This document shows, in pieces, positions 801-59,850 of a stretch of DNA of 64,000 nt (positions are counted from its first letter, which is position 1; each line of letters starts with the position of its first letter). Origin of the DNA: Octopus vulgaris (Eukaryota); the NCBI GenBank assembly GCA_951406725.2, contig OX597816.1, forward strand, positions 161,634,001-161,698,000, given 5' to 3'. A program made the position numbers and the translations under genes. A model generated the notes under the pieces. It searched no databases. It was not told the DNA's origin and saw nothing but the letters and a program-made list of their open reading frames with translations.

Positions 801-837
<37 letters not shown>

Positions 838-1103
838 TAGGGCAATCATTATGCAGTGCGCTGGCAGAATCATTAACATACTGGGCTTCACAGCGATTCT
901 TCTGTCTTTACATTCTGAGTTCAAATTCTGCCAAGGTCAGCTTTGCCTTTCATCACTTCAAGGTTGATAAAATAAGTACCATTTGGGCTCTGCAGTCAGT
1001 GGTATGGCCCAGGGCTGCACCCTTCTTCCAAATTTCAGGTTTTGTGCCTATAATAGAAAGGATTATTTAGTACAATTATTGAATCAAAGTTGTTTCTTAT
1101 TAA

Positions 1104-1324
1104 CACTTTTGTTTCCGTATTTACTTTGAAATGCTCTGTGTTTCTTTCAATTAATTTTAAATATAACAAAGAATTTAGTAAAATAACTTAGTTATCATTA
1201 AGCTAGTGTTAGGAACATAAATTGTGACTAAGGGTTGGTAGAAAATTTTAATTCAAAACTTATGAAACAAGACATTTGTACTGCAGTGCCAGAAGTGGTT
1301 TCAGCTGGGTTGGTATCAAAAGGG
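1104..1324 (+). mobile_element. piggyBac-type MITE family 1, copy 1
   Basis: TTAA flanks (1100-1103, 1325-1328); ends AAAAGGG; about 220-bp body shared with other copies. Confidence 0.8.
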
Positions 1325-1355
1325 TTAAGAATTGTTTCTCTATTATATATTTTAA

Positions 1356-1577
1356 CCCCTTTGTTACCATATTTCTATTGAGATGCTCTATGTTTCTTTC
1401 AATTAATTTTAAATATAAGAAAGAATTTAGTAAAATAACTTAGTTATCATCAAGCTAGTATTAGGAACATAAATCGTGACTAAGGTTTGGTGGAAGATTT
1501 TAATCCAGAACTTTTGAAAACAAGCCATTTGTACTACAGAGCCAGAGACGATTTCAGCCAGGTTGGTACCAGAAGGG
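1356..1577 (+). mobile_element. piggyBac-type MITE family 1, copy 2
   Basis: TTAA|CCCCTTTGTTACC...GGTACCAGAAGGG|TTAA. Confidence 0.85.
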
Positions 1578-1613
1578 TTAAATTAATCCTTTGTTAAATT
1601 AATCATTTGTTGA

Positions 1614-1828
1614 CCCTTTTGTTACCATATTTCTGTTGAGATGCTCTCTGTTTTTTTTTTCCAGTTAATTTTAAATATAACAGAATTTAGTAAAATAACT
1701 TAGTTATCATCAAGCTAGTGTTAGGAACATAAATTGTGACTAAGGTACGGTGGAAGATTTTTTTTATGAAACAAGACATTTGTACTACAGAGCCAGAGGT
1801 GGTTTCAGCCAGGCTGGTATCAAAAGGG
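1614..1828 (+). mobile_element. piggyBac-type MITE family 1, copy 3
   Basis: TTGA|CCCTTTTGTTACC...GGTATCAAAAGGG|TTGA. Confidence 0.85.
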
Positions 1829-2736
1829 TTGAAGGAGGGTAGGGATACAGAGGAGAGATAATTTCAAACCAAATTATGTTTTGGGCTCAAGGCCAGCAAG
1901 TTCAGGTGAGAGGTAAGTCGATTCTGTCAACCTCAGTGCTTGAGTGGTACTCAACATTTTGCCTGATGTGTTAACAATTTGCCAGCTCACTGCTGTGTAG
2001 AAGAGAGATAGTTGACAGCATGGATGACTACCTTGTGACCACTTACTCTTTTACTTGCTTCAGTCATTTGACTATGGCCATGCTGGAGCACTGCCTTTAG
2101 TTGAACAAATCAACCTCAGGACTTACTCTTTGTAAGCTTAGTTGTCAAGCGATGATGGAGGGACAAACACAGACACAGATACATATGTACATATATATGT
2201 GTGTGATGGGCTTCTTTCAGTTTCCATCTACCAAATCCACTCACAAGGCTTTGGTTGGGCCAAGGCTATAGTAGAAGACACTTGCCCAAGGTGCCACACT
2301 GTAGGACTGAACCTGGAACCATGAGGTTGGGAAGCAAGCTACTTACCACACAGCCACTCCTGCGCCTTGTCCAAATGTTTTGCAAAATACTTCTGTGCAG
2401 ATGCCCTGACCTATCACATTGATAGTTTAAATGATGTTAGTATTTATCTTCTCTGTCAGAAGTGACTTTACTTTCTATTTCTTGCAAATTAATGAAAAAT
2501 AAAAAGAAAATTGTAAAAACATAATTAAAAAAAAATAAGCAGTGACGAAGTAATGAAAATTTCTGCTCATGTACAACTGGAAAAGTATAAGAAGTGATAA
2601 AAGTTTAGGAAAGTAAAAACATATTGGTTTTGATTTCTGAGAAGCTGAAGTGGAAAGATTTATGTCTCAGGAGTGTTGGATTTTTTTCATGATAGAAATT
2701 ATATTTTCAAATTTGTACACTAAAATCAGTCAATAT

Positions 2737-2897
2737 AGGAGAGAGAAAGAGAGAGAGAGGGTGGGGTGAGAGAGAGTTCTTCTCCAACATTATTCCAACC
2801 AATGAACAAATTCTCTGGAGATTCAAATAATAAATTTACCACTTGCCAATTGCTAAAACTTCATAATATTCCCAGACAGATTGAAAGAACAAGTTAG
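2737..2897 (+). other. Candidate upstream, probably non-coding, exon of the kinase gene
   Basis: Consensus donor TAG|GTGAGT at 2897/2898 in a repeat-poor island after a GA-rich tract; contains a 31-codon ORF (2802-2897) ending at the donor. Confidence 0.3.
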
Positions 2898-3385
2898 GTG
2901 AGTGTCATGATTTAATTATGTAGTTGACTTTTGTGAAAATTTGTGTTTTGTTAATGGAGTTAAGGAAATCGAAATTCTGACGTCCTTAGACTGGATTCCA
3001 TTCTATTCTCTTACAATTATTTTAGACTGGGGTGTGGTTAACACACTTAATAGTCTTAACTACTTAGCAAATAGGACTTTGTTACTACAGCTAGAGATTT
3101 AGTAACTTAATTTGGCCAGGCATGTGATGTAGGCATTCTGATTAATTAAGAGTGTGTTTTGATTTAGAAGGTGGTAATGTATTTTGATCATGAACCAGAA
3201 CATACACATGCATGCGTATGCTCACACACACACACACATATGTGCGTGTGCACACCCACACACTTGCGTACACACGCACACGCGTGCACACACTAAGGGT
3301 GGGGACCCTTTAGTCAGGGAATGGTACGGTGACTGATGTGATTCTGCCAACATCATAAGATATTTTAGTAGAGTATCATTTACAG

Positions 3386-3924
3386 CAGGGTTTCTCAACC
3401 ATTTATTTACCTATGGACCCCACTTTGATTTTTATTTTACTCAAGTGGACCTTCTTGGCCATTCATCATCATCACCATTTAACATCTGTTGTCAATGCTG
3501 GCATGGGTTGGATGGTTTGACCAAGGCTGGCACGCTGGAAGGCTACATCAGACTCCAGTCTGATTTAGCATGGTTTTCTATGGCTGGATGTCTTTTCTAA
3601 CCAGTCCGAGAGTGTAATGGGTATTTTTACATGTCACTTGCACGACCCCGGTATCTGCCATGGCTACGAGTTTCCTTGGCTTGATGGGTCTTCCTCTCAA
3701 GCATGACATAATGCCAAAGGTCTCAGTCATTGCCTCCGTGAGGCCCAACATTCAATGTTTAAAAATACCCTATTACATTTTCACAATTAAATATTATTAA
3801 GATTTGCATAAGAAAAATTGTTAAAACATTTTGTTTATTATAGAAGTATAACCAATTTATTGCACATAAATTTTAACAGCAAAATCTCATATGGACCCTT
3901 AGGGGTTTTTGCTGAGAACCACTG
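3386..3924. mobile_element. hAT/Charlie-type MITE with a nested RTE tail (about 3464-3750)
   Basis: TIR CAGGGTTTCTCAAC...GCTGAGAACCACTG; 8-bp flanks ATTTACAG/GTTTACAT (6/8 match). Confidence 0.65.
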
Positions 3925-4334
3925 GTTTACATGGACATTATTAGGGTATTTATTAAAGTGAAATCCTTTTTTTCTCATTTCTCTTTTATAATTGGCAAGT
4001 ATTATATTCACTTTGATAATTAATAATTGACATTTTAACACCAAGGCTTTCATATTGATAAAAAAGGACTGTTTATTGCAAAGATACTGGCCTGTTTCTA
4101 TGATAGACTGCTAAGTTGTTTGGCTGTTAACATAAATATTGATCCATTGGGGGATCAGAACCATCAAGTCATTTTATGTTTCTTCAAGGGGTGGGGATTG
4201 GGGTATCCCCCCCTCCTGCCTAGAAATTTGAAATTCCTTCTTCTTGATTTGTAAGTTTTATATGTTGACTGTGCTAGATTATTTCTCAATTTCTAGCAGA
4301 AAAAGTAATATATACATACATACATACATACATG

Positions 4335-4376
<42 letters not shown>

Positions 4377-5290
4377 TACTAAAATAGTGCTAATAGTTCC
4401 TATAAAATACCATATCTTGGAACTATTTTATGGTAATTGAATCAATTATCGTAAAATATCATCATGAACTTGCATTTAGTTAATAGCTGTCAAAATCTGA
4501 TTTCAAAGGTCTAATGCATTCTGATTCATTGTGAAATACCAACTGTAGAATTTGGTTTACTAAAAATTAATAGGAGGCATAGCTTGTATAGGTTATGACA
4601 TTCACAACAACAGGGAGATATGCCATTTATTTCTTGAAATGGGGAAAAAAGGAATTTTTTGCATTGTATTCTTTTTAATCTGGAAAAAAAAAAGAATAAA
4701 TAAAAAAATAAAAACGTAATAAATCCCGAATCAAACCATCAACTTTGGTACAAAATCTTGATGCATTAATTGGTATAGAATTTGAGAGAAAGGAAACAGC
4801 TTTTAGTTAGTCACTTATGTAGCCAGATCCACTAAGTCAAGTTTTCAACTAAAAAGATATGTTTACTTCGGAGAATATTATATAAACAGGCTATATGTAT
4901 GTATATGTATCATTATCATCATCATCATCCAGCGTTTTAAATCTGGGCTTTGTCCCTGTTAACAGGGGTGGCTAGATCTACCTCAATGCCATAGCAACTG
5001 AAGTAGGCAGGTGCAGCCCACCCCAACCTTTGGGCTGGCTGGTGGCCAGTCTCCTTTGCTATCATGAGGCTCTTTTGAAGCTGGATTTTCTACGGGGAGC
5101 ATGCCCTTGCTTACCCTAACCTCAGTCTCTAGACATGGGTGGTCCTGAGACCGAAACATCTACCACAATTTTTAAGAAATGTGGTGGAAAACTTGCTCAG
5201 GAAGGCAGGGACACTACTCCCTGAGACCCTTTTTGCAGCACCCCCATGTATACATATGTATATATGTGTATATATAGATATCTATATCTA

Positions 5291-5359
<69 letters not shown>

Positions 5360-6791
5360 ATCTATATATATATATATATATATATACTTCTAATATAGGA
5401 TAAAATTTATTTCAAGAATGCCAATAGAATAGACTTTCAATCATCAATCACCACAAATACACAAATGTATATACAAATGGCTTACATACATACATGTTGC
5501 TGTGTTGTTAGGAAGTTTGCTTCCCAACCATGTGGTTTCATGTTCAGTCCCACTACATGGCATCTTGGTCTAATCTCTTCCACAATACTCCTGGGCCAAT
5601 CAGTTTTGTGAGTAGGTTTGAACTAAGGATCTTTATTTCTAAACTGACAGTAATAACATTCCCTCTGGCACCCCACCACTGACATCTTTTTTCTTCTTGG
5701 CTACTCTATCCACCCTTATATAATGCAGGTACCATGTATCTCCACTATAGCAAGCCTCCTGACACAAACCCAACCACTCTCATCTCAAATAACCCCCTGC
5801 CAAATTAGTTGCAAGGAGTGAGGGTCCTTTATATGTTATAACTGGTTTATATTAAAGAATAAAGATATTGTGAGTCAGTATAGTTTTACCGATTCTGACT
5901 CTAACTCCAGTTATCACTTGTTTCTGACTCCGACTCCACGACCCTGAATCTGAGTTGACAACTTTGAATCTGACTCCACAGCCCTGGTAGAAACTATGCC
6001 AAAGCTGACACTGGAGCTGAACACAGCTTTGTGGCTTACCAGCTCCTGTTAAACCATCCAACTCCTGCCAGCATGGGAGACAGACATTAAATGATGATGA
6101 CGATAATGTTTCTCAATCCAGTATTTGCTTTACTATGTATTTCTCCAGAAATAAGACATTTGATAGTGATCTAATCAATATCTAGCTAATCAAAGGCGGA
6201 GAGCTGAGCATGTCGGGCAAAATGCTTAGTGGCATTTCATCTGCTGTTATGTTCTGAGTTCAAATTCCACTGAGGTTGACTGTTCCTTTCATCCTTTGGG
6301 GTCAGTTAAATAAGTACCAGTTACGCACTGGGGTTGATGTAATTAACTTAATCCCCTTGTTTTTCCCTCTATGTTTAGACCCTTGTGGGCAGTAAAGAAA
6401 TAAATATGTTGCTTTACTATGTATTTCTCCAGAAATAAGACATTTGATAATGATCTAATCAAAGGTGGTGAGCTGGTGGAATCGTTACCATGCCGGAAAA
6501 CCCACTTAGCTGCATTTCTTCTGACTTTATTTTGGGTTCAAATGGTGTTGGGGTTGGCTTTGCTTTTCATCATTTCAGGGTTGATAAAATAAGTACTAAC
6601 TGAACACTGGAATCAATGCAATCAAAATACGCCTCCCCTGAAATTGCTGGCCTTGGACCAGAATTTGAAACCAATGTTTAGCTAATTGAAGCAGTAGAGA
6701 AGTAAATATTAATAAATAAAAGGAAAAAAGTGAAGTTTTTCTTTCTGAAAATGGGATTAAAAGTTCTAACTAATTCTCGTATTATAATATA

Positions 6792-7016
6792 TATTTCTTT
6801 ATTGCCCACAAAGGGCTAAACATAGAGGGGATAAACAAGGACAGACAAAGGGATTAAGTCGATTACATCGACCCCAGTGCGAAACTGGTACTTTATTTAT
6901 CGACCCCGAAGGGATGAAAGGTAAAGTCGACCTCGGCGGAATTTGAACTCAGAACGTAATGATAGACGAAATACCGCTAAGCATTTCGCCCGGCACGCTA
7001 ATGAGTCTGCCAACGC
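6792..7016 (-). mobile_element. SINE family B with a perfect 16-bp TSD
   Basis: CTCGTATTATAATATA at 6776-6791 and 7017-7032. Confidence 0.9.
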
Positions 7017-8089
7017 CTCGTATTATAATATAATGTATTTAACCACCTCAATCTAACTTCAATTTTTAATGAATATAGAAATATATTAACTAAGCTGAGT
7101 ATCCATATTATGCAAAGGACCTTCTAATTGGTTTGATTATATGTGAAAACAGTACAACTAATTAGTATTCTTCACAGCATGTATGTAAATATATCTTGTC
7201 ATGTGAACATATGAGTGTATGTGTGTGTGTGTGTGAGCATGTGTGGCAAGTAAAAAACACCATTTGAGCGTGGTTGTTGCCAGTGCCACCTGACTGGCTC
7301 CCACCCATGCTGGCACATAAAAAGCACTATTTGAGCATGGTGGTTGCCAGTGCTGCCTAACTGACTCCTGTGCTAGTGGCACATAAAAAGCACCCAGTAC
7401 ACTCTCGGAGTAGTTGGCATTAGGAAGGGCATCCAGCTGTAGAAAGCTTTGCCAGATCAGATTGGAGCCTGGTGCAGCCTTCTGGCTTGCCAGCCCTCAG
7501 TCAAACCATCCAACCCATGCCAGCATGGAAAGCAAATGTTAAACGACAACGATGATGATGATATATATGTATACAGAGAGAGAGAGAGAGATGTATGTAC
7601 TTGTGTATACATCACTATATAAATAACATTTTTTTACATGTATTCACATATGTAGTATATATAATGGGTGCATGCATATTAAAACAGACTCCACCTAGTA
7701 ACACAAGTCAATGTTAATATCATACACACACACACACACAGCATTATTCATTCTTTCTACTTTATATACTCATTGCTTGTTGTCTTTGAAGCTGTTGTTT
7801 TTGTAATTTTATTTACATTTCAATTCAGTGATAATAATATTTACGTTCTAAAGAGTCTCCTAATTTATTAATTATATGCAGCTTTTTTCAAAGCTTGTGA
7901 GCAATTAACATAGATAAATGGGTTAACACTTTTGTTGTCATCATTTTTTTTTAATGTTAGAGATGAAGAAACATCGCAGATTTTAATTTTTCTCCTCTCT
8001 TTCATCATCTTTCTCATTCCCTCTGTCTCCGATCTCCCACCCACCTCTGCCTTGTTTTTGTTTTCATTTTCAAATGCCATTGTTTGTAT

Positions 8090-8725
8090 ATCTGTGAGTA
8101 TGTGTGTGTGTGTGTGTGTGCGGGTGTGTATGTATGTATGTAGGTATGTGTGTATGTATGTATATTTATATGTACACACTCACACACACACACAAATATT
8201 AACACACATCCACTCTCCTATATATAAGTGTATGAATGTATGTTGTGTATATGTATGTATATACTCATTCACACACATCCACTCTCCACACATCCAACCA
8301 TATCTGTGTGTGTGTGTGTATGTGTGTGTGTGCGCGGGTGTGTGTGTATGTATATTTATATGTACACACACACACACTCACACACAGATATTAACATACA
8401 TCCACTCTCCTATATATAAGTGTATGAATGTATGTGAATATATATGTTGTGTATATGTATGTATATACTCATTCACACACATCCACTCTCCACACATCCA
8501 ACCATATCTGTGTGTGTGTGTGTGTATGTGTGTGTGTGCACGGGTGTGTGTGTATGTATATTTATATGTACACACACACACACTCACACACAGATATTAA
8601 CATACATCCACTCTCCTATATATAAGTGTATGAATGTATGTGAATATATATGTTGTGTATATGTATGTATACACTCATTCACACACATCCACTCTCCACA
8701 CATCCAACCATATCTGTGTGTGTGC
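8090..8725. repeat. Tandem repeat, about 200-bp unit x3, built from CA/TG microsatellites
   Basis: ATTAACA.ACATCCACTCTCCTATATATAAG recurs at about 8198, 8390 and 8596. Confidence 0.9.
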
Positions 8726-10535
8726 ATCCGTATGTGAATAAGCTTGTGCAGCAGTGCAAATGAATGCATGCGTAAGTAAAGGAGATGAGTAAATTGAACA
8801 CATGTCCTGCAGAACAAAATATTATTTTCCTGTGAGATAGTTCCTATAAAAACTGTATGTGCATATCGAAATGGTTTACTCTACTCCACAAATCGGAGTT
8901 TAGTCTTCTAACTTACAATAATAATATACATTGGAAGCAAGACTGGTTTCTCTCGTTAATAAAATTATCTTCATTATAGTGGATTCTTATTATATGAAGA
9001 GGTATTTGCTGACATCTTTGTCATGTGGTCGTTATGAAGGGCCATCAGCGTTTAAAACTACTTACAATTATAACATACTTAAGAATACTTTAAACACTAC
9101 ATATGTCCGTTAGTAATTATGTTACCACTTGTAACAGTATCTGTTATAATTAATGTAATTGCTTTCATTTCTTTGATAATGAGGTCTTGATACATTTCAT
9201 AGAATATTTTAATCAAATTTTGTAATGAAAGTATAAAGAAGACAAAAATTGATATACCCCAGTATAGCCACAGCTAAATGGTTGAAACATCTTTGTGACA
9301 GGAGTGGCTGTGTGGTAAAAAGCTTGCTTCCCAACTCCATGGTTCTAGGTTCAGTCCCACTGCATGGCCAACCAAAGTCTTGCAAGTGGATTTGGTAGAT
9401 GGAAACTGAAAGAAGCCATCATATATATGTATGCATGTATGTATATGTTTGTGTCTGTATTTGTTCTCCCATCATCACTTGACAACCGATGTTGGTGTGT
9501 TTACATCCCCATAGCTGTTCGACAAATGTGACCAATAGAATAAGTACTAGGCTTACAAAGAATAAATTCTAGAGTTGATTTGTTCAACTAAAGTTGGTGC
9601 TCCAGAATGGTCAGAGTCAAGACTGAAACAAATAAAAGATATATATATATATAATGTATTTGTGTCTCTGTGTTTGTCCCTCCCCCCACCATTGCTTGAC
9701 AACCAATGTTGGTGTGCTTACATCCCTGTAACTTAGCTCTTCAGCAAAAGTGACCGACAGAACAAGTACTAGGCTTACAAAGAATACATCCTGGAGTCAG
9801 TTTGTTCGACTAAAGGCAGTGCTCCAGCATGGCCGCAGTGAAAATGACTGAAACAATTAAAAGAATAAAATTGCCAAGTTTAACTCTTTAGCATTTAATC
9901 TTGGCCCCAATAATCTGCCCGATTATGTTTAAAGTGGTTAAATCTAACTTCTCACACCTACCCTACATTGTCATTCTAAAAATATACAAAAATCTATCTA
10001 GTAAAATATCCATTTTACGGATCCTCACATCGTGGAAAATTTGCAGATCTTTTAGTCTCATTTTTCTCCCATTGCTAAGAATACCTGATGTCTAGTTTTT
10101 CTTATAATTACCTATTATTGTGTTTTGTTGCCATCCACTCCATTCTATCTTCCCAGTAGAAAATGGAGCTAAACTTTGATGTATGCAGAGGTAGGTGTTA
10201 GCATTAGTGATGTGTATAGGTGTGAATTGAAAGAAATAGGAGTCTTATGGAAGCTGTTTGTGAATGAGGTTACAGACATAGCACTAGTTCCAAGAGTGTG
10301 TATCATGATAAGCTGTATGGAGATTGGTGGTGGGGTTGGGCAGTGTGACTGTACCAGCAACAAAATACACTTGGATTTTCCACCTATGTAGGCGCAGGAG
10401 TGGCTGTGTGGTAAGTAGCTTGCTTGCCAACCACATGGCTCTGGGTTCAGTCCTACTACATGTAGCCTTGGGCTGATCAAAGCCTTTTGAATGGATTTGG
10501 TAGACGGAAACTGAAAGAAGCCTGTTATATATATA

Positions 10536-10591
<56 letters not shown>

Positions 10592-10710
10592 CGTTCCTTG
10601 ATTGTGATGTTGAACTTATAAATGGTATATGACTATTTAATTTTTTCCCACTAGGCCGCTGGTGGCAAAAAAATTCTACAAAATTTTTTTCGCCACCCTA
10701 TATTGATTAA

Positions 10711-10799
<89 letters not shown>

Positions 10800-10805
<6 letters not shown>

Positions 10806-11090
10806 TTATTATATAGAAGGAGCTTCTACAGGACTAGAACTGTTTCATTCAAGAGAAATCTTCAGGAAGCTAGTTAACAAGAATTGTATTGGCATTTATA
10901 CATTTAGGCAGGTTTAAAGGGGTGGTGGTGGGGGACTTTTTGGGGGTAGGCATAGCGCAAAATATCATACTTGGGGGAGTGGTCAAGGAGTCAGTGGTAA
11001 ATTAGATAAAAGAATAAATAAAAAAATAAAAATATATATATAAAAAAGAATAGAGTTTTAGGTAAATAAGGAGATTCTCACTTATACCTA
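10800..11090 (-). mobile_element. Probable Penelope-like retroelement remnant inside a (TA)n tract
   Basis: Non-microsatellite block flanked by (TA)n that carries the hammerhead; the Penelope assignment is inferred from that association. Confidence 0.45.
10821..10871 (-). ncRNA. Type I hammerhead ribozyme motif
   Basis: Minus strand reads AGCUUC-CUGAAGA-UUUC UCUU GAAU-GAAA-CAG UUCUAGUC CUG-UA^-GAAGCU: conserved core, 6-bp stem I, short stems II and III, GUA cleavage triplet. Confidence 0.8.
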
Positions 11091-11189
11091 TACACATATG
11101 TATACATATATACACACACATACATACATATATACATACACACATACATACACACACACACATATACATATATATACACATATACACAC

Positions 11190-11245
<56 letters not shown>

Positions 11246-12649
11246 ATATATTTGTGTGTCTGTGCTTGACAACCAATGCTGGTGTGTTTACATCCCCCGT
11301 AACTTAGCAGTTCAGCAAAAGGGACCAATAGAATAAGTACTAGGCTTACAAAGAATAAGTCCTGGGGCCAATTTACTCAACTAAAGGCAGTGCTCCAACA
11401 TGGCTGCAGTCAAATGACTGAAACAAGTAAAAGAGTATGTATAGAAAAATGTAATTTTGTACAAATATTATTCAAATGATAAATATTTGCATAAAATATT
11501 CTTTTCTGCTCTAGGCACAAGGCCTGAAACTTTTGGAGAGGGGGCCAGTCGATTAGATCAAACCCAATATGCAACTGGTACTTAATTTATTAACCCTGCA
11601 AGGATGAAAGGCAAAGTCAGTATTGGCGGAATTTGAACTCAGAACGTAGTAGCAGAGGAAATATTGCTAAACATTTCACCCGGCGTGCTAACATCTCTGC
11701 CAGTTTGCTGCCTTATTTGCATAAAATATTAATTAAACAATAGATAGAGGGCACTCTGTTGGTTATAATGATGAGGGTTCCAGTTGATCTGATCAACAGA
11801 ACAGCCTGCTTGTGAAATTAACATGCATGTGGCCAAGCACTGCACAGACACACGTACCCTTACAATGTAATTCACAGGGAGATTCAGCATGACACAGAGT
11901 GTGACAAGGCTGGCCCTTTGAATAACAGGTACTACTCATTTTTGCCAGTTGAATGGACTGGAGCAACATGAAATAAAGTGTCTTGATCAAGGACATAATC
12001 CATCACCAGGAATTGAACCCACGACCTTGCGATTGTGAGCCAAATGTCCTAATCACCAACCCACATGCCTTCTAATTATACAAGCTTGTAATTAAATGGA
12101 TTATTAATAATCCTTTCCATTATAGGCACAAGGCCTGAAATTTGGGGGAGGAGGATAGTCGATTATATTGACCCCAGAATTTCACTGGTACTTAATTTAT
12201 CAACCCAGAAAGGATGAAAGGTAAAGTCAACCTCAGCAGAATTTGAACTCAGAATGTAGCGATGGGCGAAATACCATTAAGCATTGTGTCCAGCATGCTA
12301 ATGATTCTGCCAGCTTACCACCTTAAATAGATTATTAACGATAATGTTTGCTGATGAAATAAATAATTCTTTCTGATTTCGGCACAATGCCAGCAATTTT
12401 GAAGAGATGGGGAAGTCGGCTACATTGATCCCAGTCTTCAACTGGTACTCGTTTTATTGGCTCTAATAGGATGAAAGGCAAAGTCAACCTTGATGGTATT
12501 TAAACTAAGAACATTGAGCCACAAGCAATGTTCTTAGTTGACATGCTAACAATTCTGCTAGATGATCACCATCAATGAAGTAAATAATGTAAATGAAAAA
12601 TTAGGTTCTTAGCTGGATTGTCAATAATAATAATAATAATAATAACAAC

Positions 12650-12682
<33 letters not shown>

Positions 12683-13769
12683 CATTATCATCATTTAACA
12701 GCTGCTTTCCATGTTGGCATGTGTTGGATGGCTTGAATGAGGACTGGCAAGCCAGAAGGTCGCACCAGGCTCCTGTCTGATCAGCAAGTTTTCTACACAG
12801 CTGGATGCCCTTCCTAATGCCAACCACTCCGAGAGTGTAGTGGGTGCTTTTTTACATGCCACCGGCCAGGGAGGAGGTGGGCACTCAAGTTCAGCTTAAG
12901 AGGCTGATAGAATTAGTACCAGGGTTTTAAAAAAATAGATCCTGGAATCAATTCATTCAACTAAAAATTCTCCAAGGTGGTGCCCCAGCAAGGCCACAGT
13001 CTAATGATTGAAACAAGAAAAGCTAAAAGTTAAAAGATAATCAAGTCAAATACTAAGGTTGATTTAATATTCCTATTAAAGCCTCCTAGCTTTGCATGGA
13101 ATTATAATAGAAGACTTGAGACTTAGAAGTGAAAATGCCATAAAAATAACCTGGTATTGATTATCTTACTATAAAGGTTTACCAGTATATTTATTCATCT
13201 CTTGCACCTTACATATGCATGGCTCTGTGATTAGTTCTCAGCTGGAAGATGTTTAAATACAACTTTAGCAATATAAAGTTTTACTGTGCCTCATAAAATG
13301 TGGAACAAGTTATTCATATGAAAATTAGAGGGAAAAAATTATTTAAAACAGTGAAAGTCAAGTTAAACTGTAACGAGCAACTGAAATAAAATTTCAGGTT
13401 ACAGTGGAGATTTTATTAACTTTTACTAATTTACATGTCTAATTAGAACTGAAGCTAGACTGTTTTGTGAATGGCCTACTAAAATATCTGCTTCAGGTTT
13501 TTACAGCTTGGTAGGTTGGCATTTCACTTGGTTGGGTTGGTTGATACCTCTCACTTGCAATGTCTCATTCATAATCCTGCGCATAGCATAAATGCAGTCA
13601 AATAACAGCCTTGAGAAAATTAATCATATATGTTAATTGCCAGGAATGTTGCGGAAACGAAATTAAAGATGGCAAGGGAAGCAACAATGGCAGCATCCAT
13701 GATGATGAAAGCAACAAAGGTGGTCATAGTGATGAAGATTGCAACAATAACATTGGAGGTGTTAATGTG

Positions 13770-14412
13770 CTGCTGTCTCACTCAATAATAATAACAATAA
13801 TGATAATAATGATAATGATAATAAACATGGGTGTTTCGTTCATCATCCTTTAACAACCCTTATTCAGGGACCTTTTGTGCAAGATGGGCTACTTGAGCTG
13901 AAGAAAATTCTAATTAGGCCCCACCTACAAGGTGATGTGCTGTGTATCTTGATGTAAGATCACTACGTTGTGCACATGTGGTTGTGATGCATGTGCCTGG
14001 TGTATCCTTATCAGATGGGTAGTCATGATGGATATATTGGGCTTTGTATAATTGTACTCCAGTGTCACTTTGATGGTATGCACTGCTCTCTCACTCAATA
14101 ATAACAATGATAATAATAAACATGGGTGTTTCATTCATCATACTTTAACAACCCTTAACCCTTATTCAAGGACCTTTTGTGTGAGATGGGTTACTCAACT
14201 TGAAGAAAATTCTAACAAGGCTCCACCTGCAAGATCATGTGCTATTTATCTTGATATTAGATCACCATGTCATGCACATATAGCTGTGATGCATATGCCT
14301 GGTGTACCCTTATGGGACGAGTAGTCACCATGGGTATACTGGGCTTTATATATTTGTATCCCAGTGTCACTTTGATGGTATGCACTGCTCTCTCATTCAA
14401 TAATAATAATAA
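13770..14412. repeat. Diverged tandem duplication, about 295-bp unit x2, joined by (AAT)n
   Basis: AAACATGGGTGTTTC at about 13822 and 14118; CTCTCA.TCAATAATAA at about 13780, 14090 and 14390. Confidence 0.85.
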
Positions 14413-14939
14413 TGATTTCTAACTGTAGCAGAAGGGCATACATTTTTGGAGGGAAGAGTAATGTGAGTTATAATGATTGCAGTAGATTAAATGTTACCTT
14501 ATTTTATTGATCCTGGACAAATTAAATCAAAGTCCACTTTGATGGGATTTTAACAGAGACAGCAATGCCACTAAATATCATAACACACTGTTGCTCTACT
14601 TATTCTGCATTCTGCTGCCCTAATAATGATGAGGATGATGATGGTAATAATAATAATAATAATAACAAGAATGTTCAGAATGTGCAAACCTCTGGCAAGG
14701 CAACACCAACATCCTCTCAATGATTAGCCGGAGATGATTTTTAAAATGAGAATATCTGAAATAAACAGTTCTTGACAGGTACTTTATTGTAAAATTCCCA
14801 GAGGGAAGAAAAGTAAAGTTAACATCAGAGGGATTTTAACCCAGAACTTGAAGAACCTGAAAGATATACTGCAAATCTGATGCTTTCACAATTCTGCCAA
14901 GTTGCCACCTAGATGAGTATGATGATGATTACAACAATA

Positions 14940-15100
14940 ACCAATTCATGCAGCAAACCAAGAATGTTGAAAATAATGAATGTTGGTTGTGGCTGACAGA
15001 TGGAAACCTGAAACAAGAAGCTGAATTGTTAATTACAGTTGTGCAAGAACAAACCGTTATAACAAGCTTGATACAGACAAAAATTGGAAATAACTCAGTC
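14940..15100 (+). mobile_element. Fragment of an R4/Dong-like restriction-endonuclease-type LINE
   Basis: WLWLTDGNLKQEAELLITVVQEQ, the post-RT motif also seen near 41320-41370 on the minus strand. Confidence 0.55.
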
Positions 15101-15421
15101 AGAGAGCAAATACTGAATCTGTGGAACCTGGGGCTATAATACAAGACATTTTCCCATGGTGCCATGCAGTAGGACTGAACCTAAATCCTTGTGGTTGCAA
15201 AAAGAGCTTCTTAACCATGCAGCCATGCCTGTGCCTATTACATTGTATAGTTTGGTCCAAAATAAGCCAAAGTTGGGATGTTCATGGCTGGAATGCCTCC
15301 AATCATGTGTCTGCTTGATTGGGGGTATTAGGGAGTTAAACTCCAACAGATAGTTTGCCATATATCATTTTAAATTCTAAAAACCTCTGTTTATAGACTT
15401 TGACATTGAAGTCTTTTAAAA

Positions 15422-16735
15422 CATAGGTTCTCAAAGTGGGCACTACTGCCCCCTGGTAGATGTTGAAATGGTCTAAGTGGGCACTGGTGCCTAAGGTGAG
15501 GGTGGGGGCAGTAGAGAAAAAGGAGGCATTGGAAGGAAAGAAGTGGATTGGGGGATGCTATAAATTTATAATATCACTAGCTTTCGTGTGCGGCAGATGT
15601 ACAGGGGCAATAAACACCGCAGATGCTCAGGAAACAGATTCCATCACATGCCAGGGGGAGAAACTAGAAGTAGTTGATAGCTTCCGCTACCTAGATGACC
15701 AAGTCTGTAGTTGGGGTGGATGCTCAGAGAGTGTTACCACTAGAATAAGAATAGCCTGGGCAATGTTCAGAAAGCTCCTTCCCCTACTGGTGACAAAGGA
15801 CCTCTTGCTCAGAGTGAAAGGTAGGTTGTACGATGCATGTGTGTGAACTGTTATGCTTCACGGCAGTGAAACATGGGCTGTGACTGCTGAAGACATGTAG
15901 GCTCAAAAGAAATGAAGCTAACATGATCTGCTGGATGTGTAATGTCAGTGTGCACATGCAACAAAGTGTAAGCACCCTAAGAGAAATGTTGAAAATAAGA
16001 AGCATCAGATGTAGTGTGCAAGAGAGACGTTTGCATCAGTATGGTCATGTACTATGGATGGGGATGAGGCTGTGAAGCATGACCTTCGAACGTTGGGCCT
16101 CACAGAGGCAATGAAAAAAGACCGAGACCTCTGGAGATATGCTGTGACTGAGAAGATCCAGCAAATAAAGTGAGTTCACAGCTGTAACCTACTCAAGTGT
16201 CACATAACCAGCCCACTCAAAAGTACCTTGGATCATATGGCGACATGCTGTGCTTGAGAAAACCTTCTGAGTCAAGTACATCAAAACCAAAATCAAATGG
16301 AAATTGTAATTGTGATCCCCGTGCCAGTGGCACGTAAAAAGCACCATCCAAACATGGCCGATGCCAGCGCCGCCTTGACTGGCATCCATGTCAGTGACAC
16401 GTAAAAAGCACCCACTACACTCTTGGAGTGGTTGGCATTAAGAAGGGCATCCAGATGTAGAAACACTGCCAGTTCAGACTGGAGCCTGGTTTAGCCTCCT
16501 GGATTCCCAGACACCAGTCAAACCATCCAACCAATGCCAGCATGGAAAATGGATGTTAAACATTGATGATAATGATGATGATGATGATGATTATATTAAA
16601 TATCAAATGATTCATAGTATACATAAATTAGTAAAATATAAAATATTTATTTATACATAAAAATAGGGGTGGGGGCACTGAGGGTATTATGTGAACATGA
16701 AAGGGGCAGTGGACTAAAAAGTTTGAGAACCTCTG
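15422..16735. mobile_element. hAT-type MITE interrupted by an RTE LINE fragment
   Basis: TIR CATAGGTTCTCAAA...TTTGAGAACCTCTG. Confidence 0.55.
15578..16591 (+). mobile_element. 5'-truncated, degenerate RTE-clade LINE
   Basis: Translates LEVVDSFRYL...RIRIAWAMFRKLLPLL...KGRLYDACV*TVMLHGSETW with stops; followed by the 3' UTR and a (GAT)n tail. Confidence 0.88.
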
Positions 16736-16737
16736 TT

Positions 16738-17475
16738 TTGTGCATACACGACAGAGTGTAAGCACTCTGAAGGAAAGTTGGACTTAAGAAGCATGAGATG
16801 TGATGTGCAAGAGAGACAAATGTGCTGGTATGGTCATGTGTTGCGAATGGGTGAGGACTAGCAGTTGAAGGAACATGTGGAAGAGGTAGACCCAGGAAGA
16901 CCTGGGATGAGGTGGTGAAGCACAACCTTCGAACATTGGGCCTCACTGAGGTAATGACAAGTGACCGTGAGAAGACCCAACAAGCCAAGTGAGACCATAA
17001 CTGTGGCTTATGCCAATGCTGCATAACCAGCCCTTTTAAGAGTACCCATTCAATCATTGGATAATAAACTCTGCTTGCAAAGACCTGTAGAGGCAAGTGA
17101 GATCATCATGGCCAATGACAGTACCACTTGATTGGCACCTGTGCTAGTGGAATGTTAAAAGCACCATTCGAATGTGGTTGTTGCCAGTGCCATTGGGCTG
17201 GCTCCTGTGCAGGTGGCATGTAAAAAGCACCATTTGAGCATGGTTGATGTCAGTACTGCCTGACTGGCCCTCATGCCGCTGGTACATAAAAGCACCCACT
17301 ACACTCTTGAAGTGGTTGGCGTTAGGAAGGGCATCCAGCTGTAGAAACTTTGTCAAATCAGATTGGAGCCTGGTGCAGCCTTCTAGCTTGCCAGCCCACC
17401 GTCAAACTGTCCAACCCATGCCAGCATGGAAAGCAGATATTAAACGATGACGACGATGATGATGATGATGATGAT
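16738..17475 (+). mobile_element. Second, shorter RTE LINE 3' fragment
   Basis: Homologous to about 15950-16590; encodes a G...RGRPRKTW-type C-terminus; repeat-containing UTR; (GAT)n tail. Confidence 0.85.
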
Positions 17476-17719
17476 CACATCATTGCAATAAGTTATAAAT
17501 CCTTTAACTCAGATGCGGTAATTTAAACAAACATGTCACTTTGACTTCATCTCTGTTCTTTACCGCATTTCTAATTGGATTATCTTCGTTATTGCAATAA
17601 TCACTAACCTCAGTTTGTTTTCCTATTGTTTGCAGTATGTATGTACCAATACAATGTTTGTCTATGTGTCAATATGTTCTAGGATAATGATCTCCTCTTC
17701 CTCCTCCACCCCACCTTTA

Positions 17720-17761
<42 letters not shown>

Positions 17762-18289
17762 ATTCATTTAGTGTTTTAATTTTATATTTAGCACATTAAA
17801 CTTGTTTTTTAAACAATCTTTGTGATTTTACTTATTGTTAATATCAATTTGTTTTCAATATGGACTCATTTGCTATATCATTGGCTATATCAGCTTGGAG
17901 TGTTAACTCAGTATATCTATATATATTAGCTTGTGTTTGTATATTAATCTACATATGTTTCTGTGTTATACACCATCTATTGTTATTTTTATATTTTTCT
18001 TTCCGTGGCTCCTGGTTTAAAGTACCTAATTTATTATTATCATTATTGATATTGGTGGTAGTGTTGGTAGTAGTAGTAGTCGTAGCAGCAGCATTATTAT
18101 TGCTATTATTGTTATCATTTTTGTTTTTATTTCCTATTTTTACCAAACTTTTTATCAGAAATGCTACCTTTTCTTTTGAACACAAATGTTTGGAATGCAG
18201 GAATTAGACGTCTACATGAAAAGCTTTATGTATTCACTGCTTGGGTGACTTTCATTGCAAAGGATGTAGTAGTATATTACACTGCTTTA

Positions 18290-18324
<35 letters not shown>

Positions 18325-21300
18325 TTTTTTTTTTTTTTTTTTTTTTTTGTAGACTCTTATCTCCATCACCTTGTTCTCTTTCATCTATTTATCCAGCAAT
18401 TTCTATTTTCCATGTTAACAATCAAGTGAAAGCAAATACGAAGGAAATGATTGTCTGGCCCAACTAGTTTATTTGTGACTTCCAACAGATGCTGATTCAG
18501 CTGATGGAGGAGTGTTCAGCTAGAAAACTGTTCTAAAGAAAACAAACAATACTATAAGTAAACTGTTAAATATGCACCATATCAAAGGCAAAATGAACAA
18601 TGACAAGTTTCAAGGAAAAGACTTTCGAGACTGATTAGAAAGAAATAAACAAAAACCTCCCATTAAAATGATTGTTTGATTAATTAAGGTGAAAACTCGC
18701 TTTGGTGGAATGCTATATTTCATCTATTCAGATACCAAATTCTCTGATCTCTGTTGAAATCTGTGTTATATTGATTGATTTCAGACAGCGAAACAGCTGT
18801 AGAAGTTTTCCCATAATTTACGTTTGTTTACTCTTAATTCAATTTAATTCAAAATTAAGTCGAACAAGATTGCCATTCCCTTGCAGAACAGACAGACAAG
18901 ACTGAATTGTTTGATAGTTTAAAGTTGGCACAACCCAGTGTTAAAATCATGATAAAATTAACTTAACTTTTGGTACTTAAAACAGTTAATATTATAACTT
19001 ACCTGTTCTTTTCTTTTACTTGTTTCAGTCATTTGATTGCGGCCATGCTGGAGCACCGCCTTTAGACTTATTCTTTGTAAGCCTAGTACTTATCCTATTG
19101 GTCTCTTTTGCCGAACCGCTAAGTTGTGGGTACATAAGCACACCAACATCAGTTGTTAAGTGATGTTGGTGGGGGGAACACTGACATGCAAATATACACA
19201 CACACACACACACACACATACGATGGGCTTCTTTCAGTTTCTTATTTCTTTATTGCCCACAAGGGGCTAAACATAGAGGGGACAAACAAGAACAGACAAA
19301 GGGATTAAGTCGATTACATTGACTCCAGTGCATAACTGGTACTTAATTTATTGACCCCAAAAGGTTGAAAGGCAGAGTCTACCTCAGCAGAATTTGAACT
19401 CAGAATGTAAAGACAGCCGAAATACCGCTAACATTTCTGCCAGCTCAGTTTCTGCCTGCTATATCCACTCACAAGGCCTTGGTTAGCCCGAGGCTATAGT
19501 AGAAGACACTTGCCCAAGGTGCCATGCAGTGGGACTGAACCCGGAACCATATGGTCGGTAAGCAAGCTACTTACCGCACAGCCACTCCTGCGCCTGGCTA
19601 CTTACCCCACATCCACTCCTGTGCCTATAGTTAATTGAAATATATAAAGAAGAATAAAGCATATCTGATACACTACTCTCTTCTATATCTGGGTGACTGC
19701 AATGTTCACTACAGTAATCACTCCACTATCATGGGTGTTACGTTCCAAAACACTCGTGATAAGTGGAACTCTGTGAAGTAGAAACAGTACTGTACTAGTC
19801 TTTATTCTTTTACTTGTTTCAGTCATTTGGCTGTGGCCATACTGGAGTGCTGCCTTTAGTTGAACAAATCGACCCAGGACTTATTCTTTGTAAGTCTAGT
19901 ACTTATTCTACCAGTCTCTTTTGCTGAACCACTAGTTATGGGTATGTAAACACACCAGCATCGGTTGTCAAGCGATGTTGGACACACACACACACTGCAA
20001 AATACTATACATAGTTTTAATACTGAATTGAAAAGCAGGGGTGAATTATTCCTACCTAATCTACAAAAAAATATAACATTTTGCATTTTATGTACAGTAA
20101 TCAGAGTAACCTTCATAATTTTATTGAATTATGTGCATATTTTGCCATAAAAGGAAAATGTTGCTATCGATCTATTTTATTTGAGGTTGGCACTGCCTAG
20201 CTTGCCTACCTAGGCGGCACTTCCCTAATCAAAATGGTTAAAACAGGAAGTTTGTAACAGAGAAATATGGGTAGCCTGAGTTAGATGGTATCACAAGGAT
20301 TAATTGAATTGTATATTGAATTATTGGTTATTTTACTGTATGAACCATATGGTTCTGGGTTCAGGTGGTACCTTGGGCAAGTGTCTTCTACTATAGCCTC
20401 GGGCCGACCAAAGCCTTTTGAGTGGATTTGGTAGACGGAAACTGAGAGAAGCCCATTGTATATATGTATGTGTGTGTGGTGTGTTTGTGTTTGTCCCCCC
20501 AACATCGCTTGACAACTGATACTGGTGTGTTTACGTCCCCATAACTTAGTGGTTTACGTCCCCATTTAGCAAAAGTGACCGATAGAATAAGTACTAGGCT
20601 TACAAAGAATAAGTCCTGGTGTCGATTTGCTCGACTAAAGGTGGTGCTCCAGAATGGCCACAGTCAAATGACTGAAACAAATAAAAGAGTATATTTCTGT
20701 CCTTTCCTTTTCCTCACCAAGTTTTGTTATGGTCTTTCTTTAGGTCTTCATGGTTTGGAACAATAAGTACTAGTTTGACTAAGTAGGTTAGTATGGAACT
20801 GACAAGACAATTGATGTAGCAGTTAAATGCGTTGTAATTGCTGCTAATTCCGGTCCTTACTCGAGCAGTTACTCAATAACTTAGCCACAATAAACTTACT
20901 CTCCAAGACAGGAAAAAACTTTAGTTCTTTACAGCATTGACATTTATAGTAAGGAAATAAAAGGAAAATGAGAAAAAATGAAAATGTCATTCATTCTGAA
21001 AGAGAAAATTGAATTCAAGGAAATATGGAAATATCTAAGAACTTTATAAAATTAAATTGTTATTAGATTAAGTAATTGAGTTTTTGCTGTCAAGTCTATA
21101 GCAATGACATTGAAGATTTGTCTTTGCATTCCAAGTAACTTTAGAAAATGGTATAACACTAGGCAAAGTGTTTAGCTGATTCACCCTTCTGTAACTTCAG
21201 AACTATGTTCAAATCATACCAGATCTAACTCGATACCTGCCTTCGACTGTTTCTAAATTCTGATATGGATTATGGCTGAAACAATATCTGTTTTTTGTGA

Positions 21301-23255
21301 AGTACTGTGTAGCTGGTCTGTGTGCACTAAATTATCTGTTTAATTCATATTTATATCTGGCTTTTCAGGATAGAAATATTCCTTTTTAATGTTGAACCTA
21401 TGTACACCCACATAACATTGTGTGTGTGATGGGGGAGGGCTAAGTGCATTTATCACATCCCAACAACATGGTTTTCAGTTCACTCCCACTGTGTGGCATC
21501 TTGGGCAAGTGTATTCTATTTAGCACCAAACTGGCCAAGGCCTTGTGAGTAGATTTGCTAGACAGAAAGTGAAAGTAGCTCATCGTGTGTGTGTGTGTGT
21601 GTGTCTGTTTGTGCCTCCCTGTCTTGACATCACATGGCAGTTGTAAACAAGTGCTACCCTCATGCAAGTGATGTCATTCATTTTCAGTCTTCCATGAAAA
21701 ACATGTCTCACCATGGGAAAATATTGCCTTGCTTGGAAACAGGTGAAGGTTGGTAATAGTAAGAGCATCCAGCTCTAGAAAACCTGCCTCAAATTCTATC
21801 TAATACATGCAAGCTTAGAATGTACATGTTGAAATATATATTATTTCTCTGCATATTTGCATGTATGTACAAACGTATCTTAGTGTTTATGTTTACATAT
21901 TTTTTCCAACTACTATTATAATTGGGGATTACCATCTGCAAATTATAAATTTTAATCATATCTTAATAATTAAAAGAATACTCGATCTGAAGTTATTTCA
22001 TCTATTACTGATCTGCAAAAAAAAAAAAAGAGAGAAAAACAGAGAAAAATTATGTTAGTATTACTCAGCCTAGCTGAGAGATCTTTCTTTAAATGCACCT
22101 GCTGCTTAGGAATAATCAACCAAACTTAGAAACAGAAGGATTTAAATGATTTCATCTGAAGCTGAATCTACACACTACAGCTTATCTTTAGAGAGCATTG
22201 CTAATTTTTTCTTTCATAATGTCTCTTATATTTCATGTGTATAATTAGAGAAAGAAATTATTTTTAAATGCCAGAAAGTTATTCCAACAAATCCACAGTA
22301 TGGTTCTAAAAAAAGCATCTTTCTAAACATGTTTTGACATTTTCTTAAATTTGATTTTTTAAAAGTAGTTTTTTTTTCCTTTTTAATTTGATTTGGTCAT
22401 TTTTAGTTTATTTCTAAAATAATGAATAAATTAAGAATTTTGGACTTGTGGAGATTGTTTTCATAACACCAATTCTTTTAAAGGTTGAGCGACATAAAAA
22501 TAAATTGAATGTTTGTGTGTGTGTGTTCTGTGTGTGTGTAAGGAAAACTCCCCTTGACATATTTAACCATAATTTGAATCTAAGGACTTCACTTAGTACA
22601 CTTGGTGTAGTTGTATCTATCAAAAATTGATAGAAACTACCTTCAACGTTATGGATCTTATAAAAAAAAAAAAACAATTGAAACTTCTAATGATGCATAA
22701 ACATTTAGAAATTCATATAGCCCTGACCATTTGTCATTCAACAAGATGGCCAAATTGATGGAATACCTTTGAGACAGGTTAATAGTTTGCATGCAGTAAC
22801 ATTTTCACTATGGTGTATCAGTGGTCGGAATATTTAGCTCTGTTGCCAACTCTAGATTATTTTTTTAAATATCAGGGTTGACTGTTTGGTAAGAAGCTTG
22901 CTTCCCAATCACATGGTTCTGGGTTCCAGAACTATATGGCACTTTGGACAAGTGTCTCCTACTATAACCCCCAGACCAACAAAAGCCTTGTGAGTGGATT
23001 TGGTGGATGTAAACTGAAATAACCTGCTGTATATATAAACCTGGAATTTTGGGGATAGGGTCTAGTCAATTACATCAACCCCAAAGGGGTAAAAGGTAAA
23101 GTTGACCTTGGTGGAATTTGAACTCAGAAACAATTTACAATAATAATGCAATGTAAGATAATGAAAAAAAGCCAGGTGAATTAAGCAGCAGAAATGTTAA
23201 TGGAGAAAAATTATACATTTTCATTTTCATTTCTTTTCTCTTTTTTTATTTGCAG

Positions 23256-23359
23256 CTGGTATTTTGGAAAAGTGAGTCGGAATGCTTCTGAAGAATGGCT
23301 TCTACATCCTGGTCTTCAGAAAGGCTCTTTTCTTATTCGCCAAGGAGAGGCTCTTCCAG
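23256..23359 (+). CDS. SH2 exon 1: WYFGKVSRNASEEWLLHPGLQKGSFLIRQGEALP
   Basis: Pyrimidine tract + tgcag acceptor; cag|gtaact donor; WYFG start and FLIR (FLVR) motif; 104 nt. Confidence 0.95.
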
Positions 23360-31472: not shown

Positions 31473-31637
31473 ACACATACACATTATCAGTACGAGACTG
31501 TGATGAACTTCGAGGATATTTGGTGAAGCATTACAAGATCCTCTCCAAGAAAAATGGAGACAATGAAAAAGATCATTACTACATAACTGCAAAGAGAACA
31601 TTCAGCACACTTGAAGAACTTGTTAGTCATTACTCAG
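31473..31637 (+). CDS. SH2 exon 2: DTYTLSVRDCDELRGYLVKHYKILSKKNGDNEKDHYYITAKRTFSTLEELVSHYS
   Basis: Poly-T tract + ttag acceptor; cag|gtaaac donor; LSV, VKHYKI and F.TL.ELV.HY SH2 motifs. Confidence 0.95.
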
Positions 31638-42498: not shown

Positions 42499-42663
42499 TA
42501 GTGGCAGACGGGCTTTGTTGTAAACTAACTCAGATCTGTGACAAACCTAGATCGTTGCTTTGGGCAATGGATCGGGGCAAACCAGATGAATTCATGACAA
42601 CTAAAGACACATTACAACTAGTCAAAAAGATTGGAAGTGGGCAATTTGCTGAAGTTTACTATG
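42499..42663 (+). CDS. SH2 end, linker and Gly-loop exon: VVADGLCCKLTQICDKPRSLLWAMDRGKPDEFMTTKDTLQLVKKIGSGQFAEVYY
   Basis: ADGLC and GSGQFAEV motifs; atg|gtaagt donor; acceptor at 42498 preferred, with in-frame alternatives at 42501 and 42507. Confidence 0.92.
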
Positions 42664-45828: not shown

Positions 45829-46085
45829 CAAAATGGAATAACCAAGTTGAAGCCGCAGTGAAAATGCAGAAAAAAGACTGTGTGACGACTGCTGCATTTT
45901 TAGATGAAGCTCAAATTTTAAAAAGCATACAACATAACAACATCGTCAAGCTACTGGCAGTTTGTAGTGATGAACCTGTCTATTTAGTAACTGAGTATAT
46001 GGTAAACGGACGTCTTTCACAATACCTTCGTGAAGGGAAAGGAAAGCAGCTAGGTTTGACTAGCTTACTTTGGATATCAGCACAG
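45829..46085 (+). CDS. Kinase N-lobe and hinge exon: AKWNNQVEAAVKMQKKDCVTTAAFLDEAQILKSIQHNNIVKLLAVCSDEPVYLVTEYMVNGRLSQYLREGKGKQLGLTSLLWISAQ
   Basis: ttgcag acceptor; cag|gtaaga donor; AVK lysine, FLDEA alphaC Glu, LVTEYM gatekeeper and hinge. Confidence 0.96.
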
Positions 46086-46149
46086 GTAAGATAAAACATA
46101 AACATTTCATTGGTGGCATGGGTTTCTAAAAAACAATGAGTTCCTTTCA

Positions 46150-49041: not shown

Positions 49042-49195
49042 ATTGCTGATGGGATGGCATATATGGAAACTGAAAATTTCATTCACAGAAACCTCGGAGC
49101 TCGTAATATATTGGTCGGAGATCAAAATCTTGTGAAAATTGCAGGGTTTGGAATGAGTAAAGTTGCTGACGATCCCGACTTCAATTTTAGAAAAG
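49042..49195 (+). CDS. Catalytic and activation loop exon: IADGMAYMETENFIHRNLGARNILVGDQNLVKIAGFGMSKVADDPDFNFRK
   Basis: tcgtag acceptor; aag|gtatat donor; 154 nt; IA.GMAY.E and ARNILV kinase motifs. Not in the supplied + strand ORF track. Confidence 0.96.
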
Positions 49196-56953: not shown

Positions 56954-57139
<186 letters not shown>

Positions 57140-59671: not shown

Positions 59672-59850
59672 GTATGGGAAGCAAAGAGGCCTTTGAGAAA
59701 GTTCAGTCTGGCTACAGGATGCCATGTCCACAGTATTGCCCTGCTGAGATTTACAATGTTGCCCTCACTTGTTGGAACATTAATGCACCAAGGCGACCCT
59801 CGTTTGACTTTCTGAACAGCTTTCTTCATGATTGCCACTCTACTTCCTGA
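59672..59850 (+). CDS. Terminal coding exon: SMGSKEAFEKVQSGYRMPCPQYCPAEIYNVALTCWNINAPRRPSFDFLNSFLHDCHSTS*
   Basis: tcctag acceptor; GYRMPCP, CW and RPSF motifs; TGA at 59848-59850. Confidence 0.95.

Follow-up and report, generated by a model that had tools for sequence, protein, structure and literature searches.

The gene that we describe here descends from a Src-type kinase, has lost both catalytic aspartates and carries, ahead of its SH2, an exon for a TRIM-type RING domain. By its gene tree it belongs to a mollusc-wide, single-copy family and is no cephalopod oddity, and this family is real, conserved and apparently undescribed. Since the residues by which the RING would contact its E2, together with the linchpin residue, are invariant, and since the arginines with which the SH2 domain would hold phosphotyrosine are kept, we think that the protein is probably (we would say about 0.58) a single-chain, phosphotyrosine-directed E3 ubiquitin ligase, in which a logic like that of Cbl would have been assembled from Src parts.

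The window, by which we mean the whole stretch of 64,000 nucleotides of Octopus vulgaris DNA that was analysed, contains seven coding exons between 23256 and 59850, all flanked by AG and GT, that join into an open SH2-kinase frame of 383 amino acids and a stop. The preliminary description of this DNA had reported just such an unbroken frame with canonical splice sites. Its seven-exon model holds for the window and is incomplete as a gene, as the exon coding for the RING lies about 4 kb upstream of the window's first base. That exon runs from phase 1 to phase 2 and encodes the conserved start methionine, a C3HC4 RING, its flanking helices and a linker. The features are the following, in window positions unless another reference is given:

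L015:5725-6169 = G000:C3:161629725-161630169, + strand: RING exon, 445 bp, outside the window (tblastn of P0018/P0022, AG/GT boundaries, Pfam RING)
1..23255, + strand: part of the phase-2 intron from the RING exon to the SH2 (tblastn of P0018/P0022, AG/GT boundaries)
23256..23359, + strand: first SH2 exon, 104 bp, with the alphaA2 Arg and the betaB5 Arg in FLIR
31473..31637, + strand: second SH2 exon, 165 bp, with KHYKI
42499..42663, + strand: end of the SH2, SH2-kinase linker and Gly loop GSGQFA
45829..46085, + strand: N-lobe exon of the pseudokinase, with beta3 Lys, alphaC Glu and hinge
49042..49195, + strand: catalytic-loop exon, 154 bp, with HRNLGARN, AGFGM, the activation loop and Phe at the Tyr416-equivalent
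49090..49092, + strand: AAC, Asn replacing the catalytic Asp of HRD
49144..49146, + strand: GGG, Gly replacing the Asp of DFG
57003..57134, + strand: exon of 132 bp with the remodelled P+1 loop (Pro to Ala), APE and alphaF
59672..59850, + strand: last exon, from alphaG to alphaI, and the stop, without a regulatory tail

The resulting protein, of about 530-550 aa, has the architecture RING-linker-SH2-pseudokinase and ends just past helix alphaI; P0018 (551 aa, source name Octopus vulgaris) matches the window exons. Pfam recovers RING, SH2 and tyrosine-kinase domains in seven of the eight proteins scanned, the remaining one being a model without RING, and finds an SH3 in none of the eight. An SH3 upstream of the SH2 was considered and rejected, as the RING exon occupies that place and is spliced straight to the SH2. 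Neither a B-box nor the domains of Cbl gave a Pfam match in the proteins scanned, where the domain order is RING-SH2-kinase and the RING is followed by a variable linker that is modelled with low confidence.

Splicing varies at several points. A tandem acceptor at 42499/42502 adds one Val, and the stored isoforms include both forms; O. sinensis models also use an alternative acceptor 12 nt upstream of 57003 (56991-57003), which adds four residues to the activation segment; and various models splice alternative first coding exons to the RING exon (L016:6346-6399, L015:4951-4992, L026:1089-1127), from up to ~120 kb upstream. The introns are rich in high-copy SINE-like repeats, seen as depth spikes in contig coverage, and four stretches of the window (15460-16170, 16740-16990, 40144-40335 and 41606-42040) hold short ORFs that by eye resemble decayed fragments of LINE retrotransposons and have no Pfam match. 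In Batillaria, the model P0347 fuses a Rubicon-like protein to a member of the family, probably through an annotation merge; no Rubicon match was found in the 150 kb upstream of the octopus locus, in the window or in the 50 kb downstream.

Window positions 49084-49152 read HRNLGARN...KIAGFG, and the two unusual codons withstand scrutiny. The catalytic-loop exon has a single 100% match in the genome (G000), while 13 of its 14 matches are paralogues, 41-66% identical. Contigs from four runs, belonging to four studies, could be placed on 45780-49300. In three of them (X12, X16 and X20, from three studies), which we took as RNA by guess and on the evidence of their splice joints, 46085 is joined to 49042 over a GT..AG intron, with no differing letter in the exon. 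The fourth, the DNA run X2, spans the same exon and its sole difference is intronic. The AAC and GGG reported in the preliminary description are therefore borne out by the genome, by the spliced contigs of three studies and by DNA, and no GAC or GAT appears at these codons. They are not an assembly error, nor the product of A-to-I recoding in the majority of transcripts; contigs drop rare variants. Restoration of an Asp by A-to-I editing was looked for and not seen in the contigs, in which rare variants are invisible, and editing cannot convert GGG to an Asp codon.

The loss of catalysis extends to the whole family. We assembled 101 stored sequences, isoforms included, of which 94 contain the catalytic loop and seven are partial models that lack it, among them P0021 and P0023, two O. 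bimaculoides models without the catalytic-loop exon, be it through a gap in the assembly or through exon skipping. All 94 read HRN, as HRNLGARN in 92 and as HRNLGTRN and HRNIGARN in one each. None keeps the Asp of DFG, which is Gly in 93 of the 94, the other being a model without the segment. Two of the three residues by which a pseudokinase is defined in sequence (beta3 Lys, HRD Asp and DFG Asp) are lost, then, family-wide. The activation-loop tyrosine has mostly gone too, with Phe in 90 sequences, Tyr in three and one unassigned (n=94). The three with Tyr (P0024, P0025 and P0029) lie in the cephalopod clade, where it would be possible that a site of phosphorylation in trans has been regained.

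Much of the kinase fold is nevertheless retained, as the preliminary description had noted for the octopus protein, in which the beta3 Lys, the alphaC Glu, the alphaF Asp, the His of HRD and the Leu/Leu/Phe of the R-spine are all in place; the Thr gatekeeper that it added to this list is no trait of the family (T 19, M 5, L 4 of 28). Lys323, Glu338, hinge Glu367, Arg418, Asn419 and Asp472 are found in 28 of 28 aligned sequences, as are Val309 and Ala321 around the nucleotide, with Leu421 in 27 of 28. The third Gly of the Gly loop has become Ala in 26 of 28, and the Arg/Gln373 at the pocket entrance is unusual. Val309, Ala321, Lys323, Glu367 and Leu421 suggest that the nucleotide pocket has been kept, and the binding of ATP without a cation is plausible.

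Constraint is strongest where a kinase would meet its substrate. Conservation peaks in the activation segment (mean 0.92), and among the 48 positions that are fixed in a family-specific way, by comparison with 26 active Src/Frk-type kinases, 15 fall within residues 432-462, that is, the activation segment, the P+1 loop with its Pro-to-Ala change and the APE region, others being located on alphaG and on the SH2-kinase linker. These residues point to a substrate-binding face that was rebuilt and then frozen as a new binding surface. Over the kinase exons, octopus and bivalves are 74-75% identical in the pseudokinase versus 63-65% in an active HRDLRAAN paralogue, whose orthology is assumed.

From these comparisons we conclude that the catalytic loss is ancestral and selected, and not the decay of a pseudogene. 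Indeed, a pseudogene or an assembly artefact can practically be set aside. The models P0021 and P0023 that lack the catalytic-loop exon, and the five further stored models that are partial, could be quoted in its favor, but it is contradicted by spliced contigs in three studies, by orthologues in four mollusc classes (57-70% identity outside cephalopods) and by a conservation above that of the active paralogue. The earlier view of a folded, expressed and selected pseudokinase of Src descent thus finds its support in the contigs, the tree and the conservation.

Descent does not amount to membership. Src-family kinases carry an N-terminal myristoylation Gly2 and a C-terminal tail with an inhibitory Tyr. 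Only two of the 101 models start with MG, neither of them at the conserved start, and first exons differ between models; a Tyr occurs within the last nine residues in 31 of 95, is not conserved and is not at the tail site. The gene that was first assigned to the Src-family type is of that origin, but lacking the SH3, the tail Tyr, a conserved Gly for myristoylation and, mostly, the activation-loop Tyr, it can hardly be counted as a member.

Protein searches recovered named relatives in cephalopods, bivalves, gastropods and the chiton Liolophura. In a search scored on nothing but RING plus SH2, all the named proteins with both domains among the 40 listed of 313 candidates are molluscan. A profile search against 1.84 billion representatives returned the family as one cluster, with a RING in none of the other 149 top matches, so that protein searches, as distinct from genome scans, found no RING-SH2-pseudokinase orthologue outside molluscs. 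A gene tree of 30 rows, with the chiton set as root, separates cephalopod, gastropod and bivalve clades in which the unnamed sequences are all nested, the pattern of a stable single-copy gene with no expansion. Asp loss alone is sporadic elsewhere. P0066 has two Frk-like kinase domains in tandem, each of them degenerate; in the second we find HRNLGARN and AGF, but no RING or SH2, a likeness that is possibly convergent; P0131 (Physella acuta), P0117, P0105 and P0163 are other SH2-containing tyrosine-kinase-like proteins without the HRD or DFG Asp, and P0131, which resembles two SH2 domains plus a pseudokinase, groups weakly (0.65) with our family. Judging from such Src/Frk-like cases (P0066, P0117, P0131), what is unusual here is not Asp loss by itself but that a RING was fused to such a protein and that the fusion became fixed throughout a phylum.

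The genome contains three active Src-type paralogues with HRD and DFG intact: two of Src type on C23 (G000:C23:14.92-14.94 Mb and C23:43.50-43.54 Mb) and one of Src42A/Frk type on C19 (C19:6.67-6.71 Mb). All seven intron positions and phases of our gene are shared by the two C23 genes, with one of which the exon lengths 104, 165, 154 and 132 are also the same. A Src42A/Frk origin, at which the xARN catalytic loop hinted, was rejected: among the kinase exons checked, that gene has only the last intron in common, and it falls in a separate clade. In a 47-row IQ-TREE analysis the family is supported at 100/100 on a long stem (1.0), with the chiton branching first, and is placed inside the Src-type group (93/97); the tree was built after 30 of 77 rows, most of them long or redundant, had been removed, and with such a stem the long-branch warning applies. 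This tree agrees with the Src-type assignment and names no parent subfamily.

The RING has its best PDB matches in TRIM2 (E 1e-18), TRIM56 and TRIM3, and its nearest genomic matches run on into a B-box and coiled-coil-like sequence, as read by eye; in a RING tree only 1 of 19 inner branches is well supported and no donor TRIM is named. In one of the C23 genes the SH3 exons start in phase 1 and finish in phase 2, exactly like the RING exon. Given this match, a phase-compatible swap is the simplest history, in which the RING exon would have replaced the SH3 exons in a duplicate of a Src-type kinase gene.

The RING has the sequence features of a TRIM2-type domain, that is, C3HC4 ligands, E2 contacts, linchpin Arg and dimer helices. 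Excerpts of the TRIM2 study (PMC9732051) report that activity needs a RING dimer, that it is abolished by mutations of V12 (V12E), R64 and F81, greatly reduced by L86R and lowered by V89A, and that the E2 is contacted through I25, Y50 and P61. In the register given by the alignment of the RING's PDB match, the equivalents of V12, R64, F81 and L86 (as a set, L31, L109, R87 and F104) are invariant in 28 of 28 aligned sequences, as are those of the E2 contacts (I44, Y69 and P84) and all eight zinc ligands, and the V89 site is Thr or Ser. The same excerpts describe the isolated RING of TRIM3 as inactive though its core is conserved (PMC9732051), and conserved residues therefore do not prove a ligase. 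In the SH2, Arg175, Arg195 and His221 are present in 28 of 28 sequences, and the Ser of betaB7 is replaced by Gly in 28 of 28; we take these to be the residues of the phosphotyrosine pocket, and the Gly may weaken or change binding. In two AlphaFold2 models (mean pLDDT 70 and 69, pTM 0.53 and 0.52) the three domains are folded, while neither their mutual arrangement nor the activation segment is resolved. The best Foldseek matches are Hck and Src, and the ESM Atlas yielded only generic SH2-kinase clusters.

The architecture, motif loss, spliced transcripts, conservation and origin described above are observed, and the biochemical steps given next are what we infer. A duplicate of a Src-type gene would have gained a TRIM2/3/56-type RING in place of its SH3, and its kinase would then have lost catalysis and fixed a new surface. 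The SH2, to judge from its pocket residues, would dock on phosphotyrosine sites made by active tyrosine kinases, and the three active paralogues are candidate upstream kinases or clients. The pseudokinase, which probably binds ATP in a metal-free manner, as EphA10 with its GFG does (PMC8454701), would offer a second binding surface for a client or a partner protomer; this surface would be formed by the activation segment and P+1 loop, both remodelled, and by alphaG, since it is there that the invariant residues peculiar to the family are concentrated. In the absence of a coiled coil, the RINGs would dimerise when molecules gather at phosphotyrosine sites, and the dimers would then activate E2~Ub and transfer ubiquitin to the client, as the case of TRIM2 suggests, and the likely outcome would be negative feedback on tyrosine-kinase signalling. 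A bolder version, which we put forward tentatively, would assign the part of substrate receptor, or of switch, within the ligase to the dead active site inherited from Src: the rebuilt activation segment and P+1 groove, together with the SH2, would read a degron or an active kinase, possibly under the control of ATP binding, and pass it on to the RING of the same chain. If true, an E3 of a new class would have been built from a proto-oncogene kinase when molluscs arose and retained from then on, uniting in a single polypeptide the circuit of Tribbles, COP1 and an SH2.

The preliminary description had proposed a scaffold, allosteric partner or dominant-negative of an active Src paralogue, and the discovery of an N-terminal TRIM-type RING with E3 hallmarks shifts the likely role toward a ubiquitin ligase. 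A role as scaffold for an active Src paralogue or a receptor, or as its allosteric regulator, with the RING serving mainly for the protein's own turnover or dimerisation, would suit the intact fold with its spine residues and its beta3 Lys/alphaC Glu pair, the strongly conserved face of alphaG and activation segment, and the presence of two active Src-type and one Src42A-type paralogue in the same genome; we consider it rather doubtful, for the invariant I44, Y69, P84, R87 and F104 are explained less simply by it than by ligase activity. An E3 could also build non-degradative chains (e.g. K63) that act as a platform for signalling and do not shut it down, which is how many TRIMs work in innate immunity, and the TRIM-derived RING speaks for this, together with the precedent of TRIM25, which is reported to make K63 chains for RIG-I signalling. 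The gene tree, however, is that of a stable single-copy gene and is not expanding, and we hold this option to be quite unlikely.

Some catalysis might persist instead, by metal-independent phosphotransfer or through rare A-to-I recoding of the AAC to a codon read as Asp. Recoding is common in coleoids, and Lys323, Glu338, hinge Glu367, Arg418 and Asn419 are invariant. It has also been reported, in excerpts of a review that is itself sceptical of the activity (PMC13519141), that CASK, with GFG, is active. But both aspartates are lost together with the P+1 Pro and, in 90 of 94, the activation-loop Tyr; GGG cannot be edited to an Asp codon while AAC stands in three sets of spliced contigs; and the same HRN is found in bivalves, gastropods and the chiton, all of which makes persistent activity very improbable.

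Full-text searches of freely accessible papers found no published description of a RING-SH2-pseudokinase. The main text of the oyster kinome paper (PMC4883820) contains no mention of RING, SH2 or pseudo, and its supplement has a divergent SFK entry, EKC22027.1 (46.8% identity), that may be the same gene; RING is likewise not mentioned in the main text of PMC8662651. In databases the family goes under the names of SRK2-, SRK3-, Fyn-, Lck-, Yrk-, Fgr- or Src64B-like kinase, or of partial TRIM2/3, and our results would correct many entries, for farmed as well as model molluscs, in which it figures as an active kinase of the SRK2/Fyn/Lck/Yrk/Fgr kind. More broadly, a single phase-compatible exon swap would have shifted the output of a Src-type kinase from phosphorylation to, probably, ubiquitylation, under a constraint tighter than that on the active paralogue and held across a whole phylum from which the chitons split off more than 500 million years ago within its own history. 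The family would offer a natural model of what the Src fold does without catalysis and, if it is a ligase, an independently evolved Cbl-like regulator.

Among known systems, Src-family kinases (Src, Fyn, Lck, Hck and the invertebrate Src64B type) share with it the SH2-linker-kinase module at ~40-45% identity, an SH2 placed before a tyrosine-kinase domain that descends from Src and that Foldseek matches to Hck/Src, and the 7/7 introns of the Src-type paralogues; our family differs in lacking the SH3, the tail Tyr, the conserved N-terminal Gly and both catalytic Asp, in its Phe at the activation-loop Tyr and in the added RING. TRIM2, TRIM3 and TRIM56 share the RING with N- and C-terminal dimerisation helices, the linchpin Arg and the F81-equivalent, whereas B-box, coiled coil and NHL domain are missing here and the targeting part is an SH2 plus a pseudokinase. 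The Cbl family, and SLAP acting with Cbl, combine a phosphotyrosine-reading module with a RING, and in Cbl the reading module is a TKB domain (4H-EF-SH2) on the N-terminal side of a RING that is monomeric. The likeness of both functions in one chain is analogous and not orthologous: in our family the RING is of TRIM type and stands ahead of a canonical Src SH2 and a pseudokinase, no TKB domain comes before the RING, and Cbl RINGs are only weak PDB matches (E about 0.002). Tribbles proteins, which do not derive from tyrosine kinases, recruit their E3 in trans via the tail, unlike our family with its RING in cis. The resemblance to Tribbles/STK40 with COP1 lies in a dead kinase fold tied to the ubiquitylation of a client, TRIB pseudokinase domains being described in excerpts of PMC13519141 as engaging C/EBPalpha and recruiting the E3 COP1. 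EphA10, lastly, also has GFG for DFG, and excerpts of PMC8454701 report that EphA10 and EphB6 bind ATP (about 95 uM) and that Mg2+ destabilises both; these two are receptors with a substituted beta3 Lys, whereas the molluscan protein has no membrane-spanning part and has kept its Lys-Glu pair.
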